Assembly (NCBI GenBank): GCA_947499545.1
Contig: CANMOZ010000010.1
Location: 52,775-116,774 of the forward strand
Direction of reading: 5' to 3'
DNA from: an uncultured Saccharospirillaceae bacterium
GTDB lineage: Bacteria; Pseudomonadota; Gammaproteobacteria; Pseudomonadales; Oceanobacteraceae
DNA: 64,000 nucleotides
Part shown: one piece after another, positions 23,765-35,694 of the stretch
Layout of the letters: each line of letters starts with the position of its first letter
Position numbering within the stretch: the first letter of the stretch is position 1
Position numbers and translations under genes: made by a program
The notes under the pieces: model-generated
Databases searched by the model: none
Seen by the model: only the letters and a program-made list of their open reading frames with translations
Told to the model about the DNA's origin: nothing

Positions 23765-24631
23765 CTAACCACTAGGCATACAGCATCGCTTGTATTTTTT
23801 TCCACTCCCACAGGGACATGATCCATTTTTATTGACTTTTATATCCTGCAAAATTGCTCGTACATCCTGCTTATAAAATTCCGTTAATGCTTTAAATAAT
23901 TCAGGGTGCTTTTTGGACATAAGATGCGGTCTTTCAAAAAAATATTCAGTAGCTACAGCAAAAAATTCAGCTCTATTTTTAGCACCATAGTCTGAAATAT
24001 TGCTTTTCTTATCATGTATCTCACGCGTTTTTTTCTCAACTAATGAAAACCAAGGAATAGTATACTGAAAGGCCATCAATTGCTCAGGAAAACCGTCACA
24101 CTCACCATCAGCCATATCAATAAGATGAGCAAATTCATGAATGCCTACATTTTGTTTGTCTCGGGAATTTTTGAACCCTTGATAGAGATGATGATGACTA
24201 AGCACCATTTTTCCAGACATTGGACCTGTACCAACCATACCGGCTATATGTGAATCATGTTGATAACACTCAAAGTTTTCATTAAAAGATGTTGGCAAAA
24301 GGTATACTGATTCTAAATTGAAGTAATGCCAATTATCAAAACCCCAAACAGGTATGATAGCGCTAGCCGCGACCAAGAGTCGATCTTCATCAGACACATC
24401 CACCTGGCCAGATTCAACCGAAGTGGTATATAAAAAAAGTATGATTCTTCGATTAAACAACAATTTATCTTTTTCCGATAACCCTCTATAGAATAGAACA
24501 TGTTCTTCTAAAAATTTTGACCACCGCTCTTGCCAAACAATGGTTTGTTCTTGAGCACTTGGAAAAAAACATTGCTTTAACCACAAAAAAACTTGACGTA
24601 TCATTTTCTGACCCATTTTTATACAAATCAA
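23765..24631 (-). CDS. MtfA-like zinc peptidase (M90) with C-terminal SEC-C metal-binding motif
   Basis: HEFAHLIDMADGECDGFP and AEFFAVATEYFFERPHLMSKKHPELFKALTEFYKQD align to E. coli MtfA (HEVAHKLD..., ECFAVLSEYFF...FPSLWQRFCQFYQQD). C-terminal CPCGSGKKYKRCC is a SEC-C motif. Confidence 0.8.
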   Translation of the reverse strand: MICIKMGQKMIRQVFLWLKQCFFPSAQEQTIVWQERWSKFLEEHVLFYRGLSEKDKLLFNRRIILFLYTTSVESGQVDVSDEDRLLVAASAIIPVWGFDNWHYFNLESVYLLPTSFNENFECYQHDSHIAGMVGTGPMSGKMVLSHHHLYQGFKNSRDKQNVGIHEFAHLIDMADGECDGFPEQLMAFQYTIPWFSLVEKKTREIHDKKSNISDYGAKNRAEFFAVATEYFFERPHLMSKKHPELFKALTEFYKQDVRAILQDIKVNKNGSCPCGSGKKYKRCCMPSG

Positions 24632-24667
24632 AAATAATTAATCCAGCACTCTATTCTGCTCGTTTTG

Positions 24668-25237
24668 TCATGATTTCACTCCCCTTCCCAAGCTCCATTT
24701 TGCATGCATGTATGAAAATATAATGCCTGCCAGCGCACCGAACAGGTGCGATTCAAACGAGATAGCGTGATCAATTGGAAGCACGCCAAAGACCAAGCCA
24801 CCATATAAAAATACTACCAATAACGCTATCGAAATGCTTTTAATACTTCTTTCAAACCAACCAGAAGCAATAGACAACCCCCAGAGACCAAAGACCCATC
24901 CGCTCGCACCGATGTGCACGGCCGACCGCCCCAAACTCCATACTAGCCCACCGCTAACCAGGATGATAAAAAGGCTAGCAACCATGAAGTATCTTATGGA
25001 TCGCAATATACAAATCGTACCGAGCGTGCAAAAAACCGCCAAATTACTAAACAGGTGGTTCCAATCAAAATGAATAAAAGGAGCTGTAAACAGTTGAAAA
25101 AATAAACGGGGGTTTCTAGGAATAATGCCATACTGTGTTAAATCACCATCCATGGCGACATTAACAACTTGAATAATAATAAAAGTAGAAACCAAAAATA
25201 AGATAACGAGCAGCTTTTTCTTTATTTGAACAATCAT
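24668..25237 (-). CDS. Rhomboid-family intramembrane serine protease
   Basis: 189 aa, polytopic. Carries the HxxxN motif (FIHFDWNHLFSNL), the catalytic GASG (HIGASGWVFGLWG) and the catalytic His in ESHLFGALAGI. Start is 8 bp from the giant ATPase stop. Confidence 0.8.
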   Translation of the reverse strand: MIVQIKKKLLVILFLVSTFIIIQVVNVAMDGDLTQYGIIPRNPRLFFQLFTAPFIHFDWNHLFSNLAVFCTLGTICILRSIRYFMVASLFIILVSGGLVWSLGRSAVHIGASGWVFGLWGLSIASGWFERSIKSISIALLVVFLYGGLVFGVLPIDHAISFESHLFGALAGIIFSYMHAKWSLGRGVKS

Positions 25238-25244
25238 TGTTTGA

Positions 25245-34498: not shown

Positions 34499-35128
34499 TT
34501 AACTTGCCGCAACTGAAATGGTGAGGTGCTCACTGTAAGCTTCCGTTGCCTGAATCACATTGTTAGCAAGCACTTCGATCTCGAAGACAATATTGGGCAA
34601 AATGGATGAAGCACTTAAAGCACCAAACATATGGTAATAGTCTTCTCCATGATTTAAGCGGTCCAAACTGATGGTCGATAAGGGAAAATATTTATGGGTA
34701 CGCAGTACCATTTCATTAAATGCGTTAATATCTTTGACCTCATTAACCGACCAAAGCACAGATTCAACAATAATCTGCTCTCCTGATACCGTTAAAAAGA
34801 TAGGTAAATCGCCGTATTCTTTCATCACGATATGGATACTAGGATCAACCCCCTCAATCAACTCTATAGAAGCTTGTTGACTTGCAAAAAGCTCAACTTC
34901 CAATAGCTCTTCATAAAGGGAATGCGTCGTCCAACGCTCTACTGCTTGAGTCATGTTGTTTTCTCCACTAAATAGAGAGACCTCACCCGGCATTCGCAGT
35001 TGCTTTTCCACAACCGATAGCTGTTTGGCATGCTCAGGCAATATCCAAACTTCTTTTTTCACTAGGCCCTGCTCACGCAAACGCCGCCGGAATTCTCGCT
35101 GGTAATGTGCTGATGATTTGGCTTTCAT
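34499..35128 (-). CDS. Hypothetical protein, first gene of the PspA-flotillin operon (possibly YjfI/DUF2170-like)
   Basis: 209 aa with a basic N-terminus (YQREFRRRLREQGLVKK). It ends 27 bp before the pspA-like gene. No confident family assignment. Confidence 0.55.
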   Translation of the reverse strand: MKAKSSAHYQREFRRRLREQGLVKKEVWILPEHAKQLSVVEKQLRMPGEVSLFSGENNMTQAVERWTTHSLYEELLEVELFASQQASIELIEGVDPSIHIVMKEYGDLPIFLTVSGEQIIVESVLWSVNEVKDINAFNEMVLRTHKYFPLSTISLDRLNHGEDYYHMFGALSASSILPNIVFEIEVLANNVIQATEAYSEHLTISVAAS

Positions 35129-35141
35129 GGTCCTAATTTAG

Positions 35142-35182
35142 ATTATCACATGTAACGAGTCAACAGTTTTACATGTGATAAT
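35142..35182. promoter_or_regulatory. Perfect 14-bp-arm palindrome (candidate operator) at the head of the operon
   Basis: ATTATCACATGTAA, a 13-nt spacer, then TTACATGTGATAAT. Begins 14 bp upstream of the 34499-35128 start codon. Confidence 0.45.
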
Positions 35183-35694
35183 ATTGATTAATTTATATAC
35201 CACTGATATATATAGATAAAATATATCATTTGTATGTGCTCACTTACTTTACACGGCCCAAAATGACGCACCTATATCATCATTGAAGCTACCTACAGTA
35301 AATCATTCAAGAAACCAGCTCCCAAATGTTTGTGCTCACTTACATAAAGCGGCATTAACGCTCAAGTAACCTTAAACTACCTTTATACAAGCCATAAATG
35401 CAGACACATATTGATTACAGCCGTTCAGCAATTTATGAGACTTCACGTACGAAATAATCCCGTATACCAATCCATGACACCGAGCAATTCACTGAAATCC
35501 ATCAAATGAATGTTTTTTTGTAAGACCCCGCTCCCCTTTAACGACTCACCTTCTGAAAAGTTCCAAATACATCAATACGCTAGGCCAATGAACTTCATTA
35601 TTAGATGCAATTAGAACAAATGATTGAGGGTCTTTAGGTTAGACATCATTGAAAAGCAAAACGATTGCACAGGATTTTTTTAAGGAGAGGCGGC

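Follow-up and report, generated by a model that had tools for sequence, protein, structure and literature searches.

A predicted orthologue of the Pseudomonas aeruginosa bac operon with linked rhomboid and M90 peptidase genes in a marine gammaproteobacterium

Why would the gene for a giant AAA+ ATPase stand in one row with genes for a PspA/IM30 protein, a short NfeD-like membrane protein, a flotillin and two proteases? The question is raised by a stretch of 64,000 nucleotides from an uncultured Saccharospirillaceae bacterium (contig CANMOZ010000010.1 of assembly GCA_947499545.1, positions 52,775 to 116,774; hereafter the window). Seven open reading frames (ORFs) run here on the minus strand from position 35128 to 23765, with intergenic gaps of 26, 25, 32, 102, 7 and 36 nt in this order, and the cluster looks like an operon. 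An earlier prediction, made from the DNA letters alone, had assigned names to the seven genes, placed them in a single transcription unit behind one palindromic operator, and stated that no function had been characterized for the combination.

Identity of the cluster and of its products

Judged by sequence, the cluster is the orthologue, in an Oceanospirillales-like marine gammaproteobacterium, of bacABCDE of Pseudomonas aeruginosa (PA3732-PA3728). The product of the first gene (34499..35128, 209 aa, minus strand as all genes of the cluster; Pfam DUF2170) passes the NCBIfam equivalog NF050185 "biofilm formation regulator BacA" with 324 bits against a cutoff of 300. This gene is followed by the homologues of bacB (33783..34472, 229 aa; a PspA/IM30 protein of the YjfJ type, ESCRT-III superfamily), bacC (33038..33757, 239 aa; a YqiJ-like, short NfeD-like membrane protein), bacD (30996..33005, 669 aa; a YqiK-type flotillin) and bacE (25245..30893, 1882 aa; a cytoplasmic ATPase with Pfam DUF3686 and AAA matches). 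The five genes and their order (DUF2170 protein BacA, PspA-like BacB, YqiJ-like BacC, flotillin BacD/PaFlo3 and DUF3686 AAA+ protein BacE) are those of the P. aeruginosa operon, and the P. paraeruginosa locus compared in this study (L043) showed the same A-E order with 53-67% identity to the window proteins. The two operons differ behind bacE. Pseudomonas bacF encodes a PLD/HKD protein of 230 aa, a homologue of which was not found in the window by tblastn, whereas the window carries at this place the genes for a minimal rhomboid intramembrane serine protease (24668..25237, 189 aa; Pfam Rhomboid) and for a zinc peptidase of the M90 family (MtfA-like) with SEC-C, a metal-binding motif, at its C-terminus according to Pfam (23765..24631, 288 aa; it would have 279 aa with the ATG at 24604 as start, the call made in the sister strain L082).

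The P. aeruginosa operon bacABCDEF comprises PA3732-PA3727, or PA14_16140-16200 (Mace 2008; Wallart 2024), in which PaFlo3 is the bacD flotillin and PA14_16160 the short NfeD homologue. The genes bacA-F were found on one transcript by reverse transcription PCR (RT-PCR), the bacD-bacE junction included, and bac mutants showed defects in biofilm formation, rhamnolipid production, swarming and virulence. BacB (PA3731) accumulates upon osmotic shock, PA3728-PA3732 are among the 17 P. aeruginosa genes induced in every infected sample of a study with two lytic phages, and BacB-F rose 6-13-fold in a bacA transposon mutant. The P. aeruginosa operon is, furthermore, the same thing as the CesT-like/DUF2170-PspA-YqiJ-flotillin-ATPase neighbourhood of Ravi et al. 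2024 (mSystems 9:e00847-23), who described CesT/Tir-PspA with band-7/flotillin, YqiJ/YuaF and a novel AAA+ ATPase; the domain set is identical, including the beta-propeller and coiled coil of the ATPase. Shortened operons without PspA, and a PLD gene in some cases, were noted in the same work.

The gene combination is therefore already described, with phenotypes, RT-PCR data, a BacA crystal structure and the neighbourhood of Ravi et al. at hand, and the earlier statement on the lack of a characterized function has to be withdrawn; this copy adds nothing categorically new. On the other hand, the rhomboid, the M90 peptidase, the N-terminal domain of BacA, the operator boxes and the leaderless promoter are not mentioned by Ravi et al., and the points new to this analysis are the twin-operator switch, found only with bacA, the predicted leaderless mRNA, the BacA N-terminal domain, the MoxR/dynein-like character of the ATPase module, the hairpin between the flotillin and ATPase genes, and the rhomboid partner. 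A role in membrane stress, as had been proposed for the cluster, is supported, and fits the induction by osmotic shock and by lytic phage infection in P. aeruginosa.

The gene names of the original prediction held up. Pfam assigned five of the seven products (DUF2170; PspA_IM30; DUF3686 with DUF7902 and AAA/AAA_5; Rhomboid; Peptidase_M90 with SEC-C), and the names NfeD/YqiJ and flotillin/YqiK were supported by profile comparison with hhalign, in which family alignments made from related loci were compared with E. coli K-12 proteins. The bacB product matched PspA_IM30 at 1e-49 and showed 35% full-length identity with E. coli YjfJ; it failed the canonical PspA equivalog TIGR02977 (17 bits against a cutoff of 243). 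Neither the 239-aa nor the 669-aa product matched any Pfam (even at E 10), NCBIfam or PDB sequence entry, and the flotillin family profile had no match in PDB. By hhalign, the flotillin family was aligned to E. coli YqiK over 406 columns (probability 99.9%, E 1.6e-33) and the 239-aa family to E. coli YqiJ (probability 90.5%, E 1.4e-6). Since the Pfam models Band_7, Flotillin and NfeD miss this pair, domain-based surveys of SPFH proteins will undercount the subfamily. Hydropathy suggests about 3-4 transmembrane (TM) segments followed by a C-terminal soluble domain in the YqiJ-like protein, and the flotillin consists of one N-terminal TM anchor, an SPFH-like region and a long Glu/Ala/Lys-rich coiled coil. 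No TM segment was indicated by hydropathy in the DUF2170 protein, the PspA homologue, the ATPase or the peptidase.

The ATPase matched Pfam DUF3686 at 2.8e-205 and AAA_5 with 23.0 bits against a cutoff of 22. Its layout comprises an N-terminal helix, the beta-propeller-like DUF3686 (~56-415), spectrin-like helical bundles and coiled coil from 440 to ~1250 (including DUF7902), one MoxR/dynein-type AAA+ module (~1290-1450) and a helical C-terminal part. The Walker A motif GYGKT lies at 1307-1311, and its Lys1310, the Walker B residues Asp1372/1373, Asn1420 and Arg1438 are invariant. When a structure model of residues 1180-1660 (predicted local distance difference test score, pLDDT, of 63) was compared by Foldseek, NorQ and CbbQ came out as the best matches, followed by dynein AAA modules and MCM, in agreement with the Pfam AAA_5 match. 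Altogether, the results suggest that the protein is a cytoplasmic motor of the MoxR/dynein clade, probably hexameric, with a long helical part as its scaffold and the propeller as its head. An identity as Vps4, or as another AAA protein of the classical clade, was considered and rejected: Vps4 ranked only 49th in the Foldseek list, behind MoxR, dynein and MCM matches, and no MIT domain was detected by Pfam. PDB sequence and profile searches with the ATPase gave nothing meaningful, and a literature search for DUF3686 turned up nothing. The family is large: of the candidates scored, at least 5064 clusters reached E <= 1e-10. Identity was 64-75% among the best 120 matches and 53-75% across orders.

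Conserved core and variable ends of the operon

To what extent the seven genes belong together was examined by scanning one genome per species, which yielded at least 572 loci with an ATPase homologue. Eighty of these were kept for comparison, mostly of Gammaproteobacteria but with Lampropedia, a zetaproteobacterium and a Longimicrobium metagenome-assembled genome (MAG) among them, and their genes were counted by tblastn with the seven window proteins. Flotillin was detected in 77 of the 80 loci, the three others being cut by contig ends. The YqiJ-like gene lay directly upstream of the flotillin gene in 73, and contig ends likewise account for the loci without it. Wherever the DNA was present (77/77), the YqiJ-like and flotillin genes flanked the ATPase homologue. 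About two thirds of the loci had PspA (52/80) and DUF2170 (51/80). The linkage check proposed with the original prediction thus came out in its favour, and the obligate core consists of the YqiJ-like, flotillin and ATPase genes rather than of PspA; we regard BacA-PspA as an optional 5' module made of a regulatory/effector pair.

The names under which the giant protein is filed in databases ("ATPase involved in DNA repair", "DNA repair ATPase"; Pfam DUF3686, NCBI) would make it a DNA-repair ATPase and place the cluster in chromosome maintenance. These names are the only direct argument, to which a PLD/Nuc-like gene behind the ATPase gene in 28 loci may be added. However, no DNA-binding or nuclease domain was found in the ATPase by Pfam, PDB or fold searches, its gene is always beside those of two inner-membrane scaffold proteins and often beside PspA and rhomboid genes, and the ATPase is induced together with the scaffold proteins by envelope stresses. 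We consider the role in DNA repair highly improbable.

The rhomboid gene was linked to that of the ATPase in 33 of the 80 loci, in three different positions: mostly it is 3' of the ATPase gene, while in L009 and L031 it is divergent and upstream. Loci that lack bacAB (L035, L038 and L042) may carry it as well. As the linkage survives rearrangement, we argue for a functional tie between the rhomboid and the core. The protein of the window (Pfam Rhomboid, 8.5e-18) has the catalytic residues Ser112 and His164, and H61, N65, G110-A-S112-G and H164 were invariant in 28 operon-linked homologues. With 40.8 bits against the rhombosortase cutoff of 84, and a score below the GlpG cutoff as well, it belongs to neither subfamily. 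In the rearranged locus of Aliikangiella marina (L048, segment 5754-9881), where tblastn did not detect a DUF2170 gene, the rhomboid gene is retained and placed between the PspA and YqiJ-like genes.

The other protease of the window proved to be much rarer. The M90 peptidase, listed in the original prediction as part of the operon, is not a conserved member: it was present in two of the 80 loci and inside the operon in only one of them, a Cellvibrionaceae MAG (L003); the sister strain L082 has it as well. The version of the operon with both rhomboid and M90/SEC-C genes is thus common only to the window, L082 and L003, the last with an additional zinc-ribbon gene. The peptidase itself matched two Pfam models (Peptidase_M90, 1.3e-59, 202 bits; SEC-C, 4.4e-7), with HEFAH at 165-169 and CPCGSGKKYKRCC at 272-284; a score of 56 bits against the NCBIfam MtfA equivalog cutoff of 400 makes it a member of the M90 family and not an MtfA orthologue. 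We regard its gene as a lineage-specific accessory at the place where other genomes carry the PLD/HKD gene. The PLD-type gene (Pseudomonas bacF, PLD/HKD) was present in 28 loci. Fifteen loci (L001, L003, L004, L006, L007, L009, L010, L016, L017, L021, L031, L040, L050, L053 and L070) have, at the 3' end of the operon, a gene for a ~177-aa protein with two zinc ribbons of the form CxxC...CxxC, which the window lacks. The 3' end is therefore best described as a variable accessory cassette, comprising rhomboid, PLD and double zinc-ribbon genes and, here, the M90/SEC-C peptidase gene.

A cassette of exchangeable hydrolases could also be read as the effector part of an anti-phage system of the abortive-infection type, in which the ATPase senses the infection and the rhomboid, PLD and M90 proteins are interchangeable effectors. 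The induction of PA3728-PA3732 by two lytic phages in P. aeruginosa and the position of the operon in a stretch of lower G+C near an IS3 transposase gene would fit such a system, for which the original prediction had also left room. Nevertheless, PADLOC-DB v2 lent it no support and returned only noise, namely coiled-coil matches between PspA and SMC-like models, at E 1e-4 at best, and matches to the SEC-C motif. Neither nuclease, NTase, TIR nor other typical sensor or effector domains are present in this copy, and phage induction also defines the Psp response, which is not an immune one. The degree of conservation would be unusual for defence as well, since ATPases of 1800 aa are 53-75% identical across orders and the order of the core genes is fixed. 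A defence function is, in our view, very unlikely.

Whether the cluster forms one transcription unit hinges on the gap between the flotillin and ATPase genes, at 102 nt the only one in the cluster that exceeds 36 nt. Six nucleotides after the flotillin stop lies a terminator-like hairpin (30965..30989, minus strand) with a stem of 10 bp, including 6 G-C pairs, and the tail ATATTTTGTT. The gap amounted to at least 53 nt in all loci compared, and a hairpin with a T-rich tail was found in 30 of 74. One might thus suppose two unrelated units that merely abut, a four-gene PspA/flotillin unit ending at the hairpin and a separate ATPase-protease unit, all the more as bacE (PA14_16190) was singled out as RsmA-controlled in P. 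aeruginosa. This division is unlikely, given the flotillin-ATPase adjacency in 77/77 loci across Gamma-, Beta- and Zetaproteobacteria. Moreover, RT-PCR in P. aeruginosa shows a transcript across the bacD-bacE junction, the bacA mutant has raised levels of all six proteins, and promoter-like matches in the region are no commoner than in shuffled sequence (28 vs 29.2). Because of the RT-PCR result, we read the hairpin not as the boundary between unrelated units but as a site of partial termination or mRNA stabilization: it is a probable attenuator or mRNA-stabilizing element that would lower the expression of the distal genes. The short gaps and the operon-like arrangement fit the single transcription unit of the original prediction, with the amendment that expression is probably two-tiered. 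A second terminator-like hairpin (23644..23664, minus strand) is located ~100 nt 3' of the last gene.

Predicted operator boxes and promoter, and the candidate autorepressor

The inverted repeat noticed earlier in front of bacA is real: its arms (35134-35155 and 35169-35190) are 22 nt long, 13 nt apart and 86% complementary. It is not a single palindromic operator, however, but a pair of 10-bp boxes, each of which is itself palindromic, so that the pair reads as one long inverted repeat. The box, T[TC]ACATGT[AG]A, occurs in two copies at ~-50 and ~-27 from the bacA ATG, and the upstream 70 nt are strikingly alike among 50 bacA loci. In the window, which holds exactly two copies, the distal box (TCACATGTAA on the coding strand, 35169..35178) is centred at ~-46 from the ATG and the proximal box (TTACATGTGA) occupies 35146..35155. 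In most of the 50 loci the distal box was at -48 to -53, and in nearly all the proximal one was at -26 to -29; at least one exact match was present in 45 loci and two or more in 38. Stray copies amounted to three in ~1.8 Mb of locus DNA, and the boxes were absent upstream of the core genes in the loci without bacA.

The boxes coincide with what appears to be a promoter. A -35-like hexamer, TTGACT (35158..35163), is situated between the two boxes, a -10-like hexamer, TAAATT (35135..35140), ends 6 nt before the ATG, and the proximal box falls inside the 17-nt spacer (all on the minus strand). Among the 38 loci with a proximal box, 33 had TTG at -35 to -37, as part of a TTG(A)C element, and 36 had TAnnnT ending 6-7 nt before the ATG. 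A Shine-Dalgarno-like motif preceded bacA in only 3/51 loci, compared with 47/52, 37/49 and 70/73 for the next three genes. From the position of the -10 element and the scarcity of Shine-Dalgarno motifs, a leaderless bacA mRNA is predicted. The arrangement as a whole predicts a sigma-70 promoter overlapped by the two boxes, which would be repressed by a protein occupying both of them. The twin-box promoter before bacA is present in P. paraeruginosa as well.

We regard BacA as the best candidate for this repressor, based on the co-occurrence of the boxes with its gene, its basic domain and the derepression in the P. aeruginosa bacA mutant. Residues 1-45 form a basic N-terminal domain, which is the best conserved part of the protein in the family alignment (consensus KSSAxYQRxxRxRLREQGLVKKEVWILPExAxxLxxxEKxLR), and a variable linker joins it to the DUF2170 domain, which is similar to CesT and type III secretion system chaperones (residues 66-202; Pfam DUF2170, 5.8e-54). 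The BacA crystal structure, PDB 8Q8O, matched at 8e-40 over residues 65-202 only; the N-terminal domain is missing from the structure. In a search of 1.84 billion representatives the domain was found in 74 clusters, always at the N-terminus. The carriers are mostly of BacA length or fragmentary, and a few are small proteins of 60-67 aa in which the domain stands alone. Its best matches below threshold were the Pfam MazE-like family (E 0.068) and NCBIfam UrfF (E 0.019).

The published P. aeruginosa work differs from this picture in two respects: BacA is taken there as a protein of 16 kDa and 146 aa without the N-terminal domain, and a sigma-54 promoter is proposed. No sigma-54 consensus (allowing up to two mismatches) was found upstream of bacA in the window, where the overall number of matches was that expected by chance. 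The 146-aa form begins after the N-terminal domain, so the "RpoN site upstream of pA3732" may lie inside the true ORF. The conserved operator and promoter design also suggests that a gene call cut short at its 5' end underlies both the published BacA construct and the sigma-54 model. In P. paraeruginosa (L043, 5689-5866), the conserved bacA ORF starts ~180 nt upstream of the published internal Met, directly behind the twin boxes.

Proposed mechanism, related systems and genomic setting

A mechanism that would connect these parts may be outlined as follows. BacA dimers would silence the sigma-70 promoter by binding the two boxes with the basic N-terminal domain, and the C-terminal chaperone-like domain would bind the PspA homologue. 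Membrane damage, as caused by osmotic shock or phage infection, would draw PspA to the membrane, and the resulting change in the occupancy of BacA would derepress the operon. The flotillin and the YqiJ-like protein would then form an SPFH scaffold at the cytoplasmic face of the inner membrane that positions PspA polymers, and the ATPase would dock on this scaffold by its propeller and coiled coils, the MoxR-type hexameric motor assembling, remodelling or dismantling it. The rhomboid and the soluble peptidase may trim or remove membrane-anchored and released components, and the hairpin 3' of the flotillin gene may hold the ATPase and the proteases below the level of the structural proteins. Taken jointly, the identity with the bac operon and this mechanism, with repression by BacA, a flotillin scaffold and remodelling by the ATPase, appear to us rather likely to be correct.

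Several points weigh against this proposal. On the side of the ATPase, the structure models reach moderate confidence, with pLDDT values of 63 and 71, the VWA protein that is the usual partner of a MoxR ATPase has no gene in the operon, and a physical link of the ATPase to flotillin or to PspA is something we infer. Deletion of PaFlo3 in P. aeruginosa reduced biofilm formation by only ~20%. With regard to regulation, we infer the DNA binding of BacA from sequence, searches of PDB, Pfam and NCBIfam with its N-terminal domain gave no DNA-binding family above noise, the derepression in the bacA mutant could be a read-out from the transposon, and the P. aeruginosa authors propose sigma-54 control and not a sigma-70 promoter with a repressor. 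Finally, the hairpin is confined to the 30 of 74 loci mentioned above and does not occur in Pseudomonas L043.

Parts of this set recur in other systems. E. coli yqiJ-yqiK corresponds to the two middle genes in the same order, although no ATPase, PspA, DUF2170 or protease gene is attached and the window proteins are too diverged for Pfam Band_7, Flotillin and NfeD. The E. coli yjfI-yjfJ dyad resembles the 5' module, the BacA C-terminal domain being 35% identical to YjfI and the PspA homologue 35% identical to YjfJ. However, YjfI is devoid of the 60-residue N-terminal extension, no boxes precede its gene, and the dyad is linked to polyamine-related genes instead of flotillin or ATPase genes. Compared with the classical Psp system (pspF-pspABCDE), PspB, PspC and PspF were not among the seven products by Pfam and NCBIfam, and a sigma-54 site is missing upstream. 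In B. subtilis pspA-ydjGHI, a PspA gene shares an operon with a gene of the SPFH/flotillin family, whose product YdjI brings PspA to the membrane (Scholz 2021). That operon has no AAA+ ATPase, DUF2170 protein or rhomboid, and the resemblance is thus one of function and not of orthology. The double zinc-ribbon protein of the 15 related loci recalls YdjG of the same operon.

SPFH scaffolds caging AAA+ and rhomboid proteases are represented by HflK/C-FtsH and the mitochondrial SLP2-PARL-YME1L complex (SPY), and ESCRT-III acts together with Vps4. The likeness of the bac operon to these systems is one of logic, in that an SPFH scaffold is combined with an AAA+ machine and a rhomboid, or an ESCRT-III-type polymer with an AAA+ remodeller. 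The window ATPase has neither a protease domain nor a TM segment, appears to belong to the MoxR/dynein clade and not to the classical clade of FtsH and Vps4, and is four to five times larger.

A more far-reaching version of the proposal can be formulated, which we put forward tentatively and would not expect to hold in full. BacA might be a hitherto overlooked two-domain regulator, in which a new DNA-binding module of 45 residues that reads the twin TTACATGTAA operators at a leaderless sigma-70 promoter is fused to a chaperone-like domain that holds PspA; the sequestration of PspA at damaged membranes would flip transcription, and the flotillin/YqiJ cage together with the MoxR-type ATPase and the rhomboid would be a bacterial counterpart of SPY. 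If so, BacA-PspA would parallel the PspA-PspF partner switch without depending on sigma-54, and the induced cage, ATPase and rhomboid would represent the energy-dependent remodeller that bacterial ESCRT-III/PspA systems seemed to lack. Apart from this version, the operon family is large and tied to biofilm formation and virulence in P. aeruginosa, and testable handles have been gained in the operator/promoter design with its candidate autorepressor, the YqiJ-flotillin-ATPase core and the recurrent rhomboid partner. It has thereby become feasible to ask by experiment whether an ATP-driven remodeller is dedicated to PspA or flotillin assemblies in bacteria.

As for the genomic setting, ParE, TolC, GpmI, GroEL and GspD are encoded in the window and show that it is chromosomal. 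Even the closest named relatives of the window ParE (Bermanella, Thalassolituus and Oceanospirillaceae) share only ~79% identity with it, and the ParE homologues put the source organism near Oceanospirillaceae/Saccharospirillaceae and no finer. The operon lies in a region of ~30 kb (19000-50000) with a G+C of 0.35-0.45, compared with 0.46-0.49 in the housekeeping flanks with parE and groEL; for the stretch around the operon itself the values are 0.35-0.44. Of the earlier suggestion that the operon was acquired horizontally, the lower G+C and the nearby IS3 transposase gene could be confirmed; the acquisition itself is possible and not demonstrated, because the ATPase has diverged from its named relatives (70-75% identity) about as much as ParE (~79%).

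The low-G+C region also contains a remnant of an insertion sequence (IS), a transporter-like gene, a substrate-binding protein gene and a maltoporin-like gene. The transposase ORF (37670-38419, minus strand, 249 aa), 2.5 kb upstream of the operon, combines an IS3-type HTH_Tnp_1 region with an rve integrase core. A complete IS3 transposase would be expected to be longer, and the ORF probably represents a remnant or the product of a fused frameshift. Between this ORF and the operon is a divergent pair of genes on the plus strand, the first (35665-36105, 146 aa) weakly similar to CesT/Tir chaperones (Pfam CesT_Tir_1, E 0.0023) and the second (36134-37492, 452 aa) without any family match, which could be a chaperone-effector-like pair. 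The pair was present in the sister strain L082 and in none of the 80 other loci. The divergent pair, as well as the downstream cytochrome b561 and MBL genes, was considered for membership in the system and rejected, since none of these genes is conserved beside the operon elsewhere. A 27-nt direct repeat lies upstream of the twin boxes, in the gap that separates the bac operon from the first divergent gene; its two copies (35231-35257 and 35327-35353) are 81% identical and contain GTAAGTGAGCACA on the minus strand.

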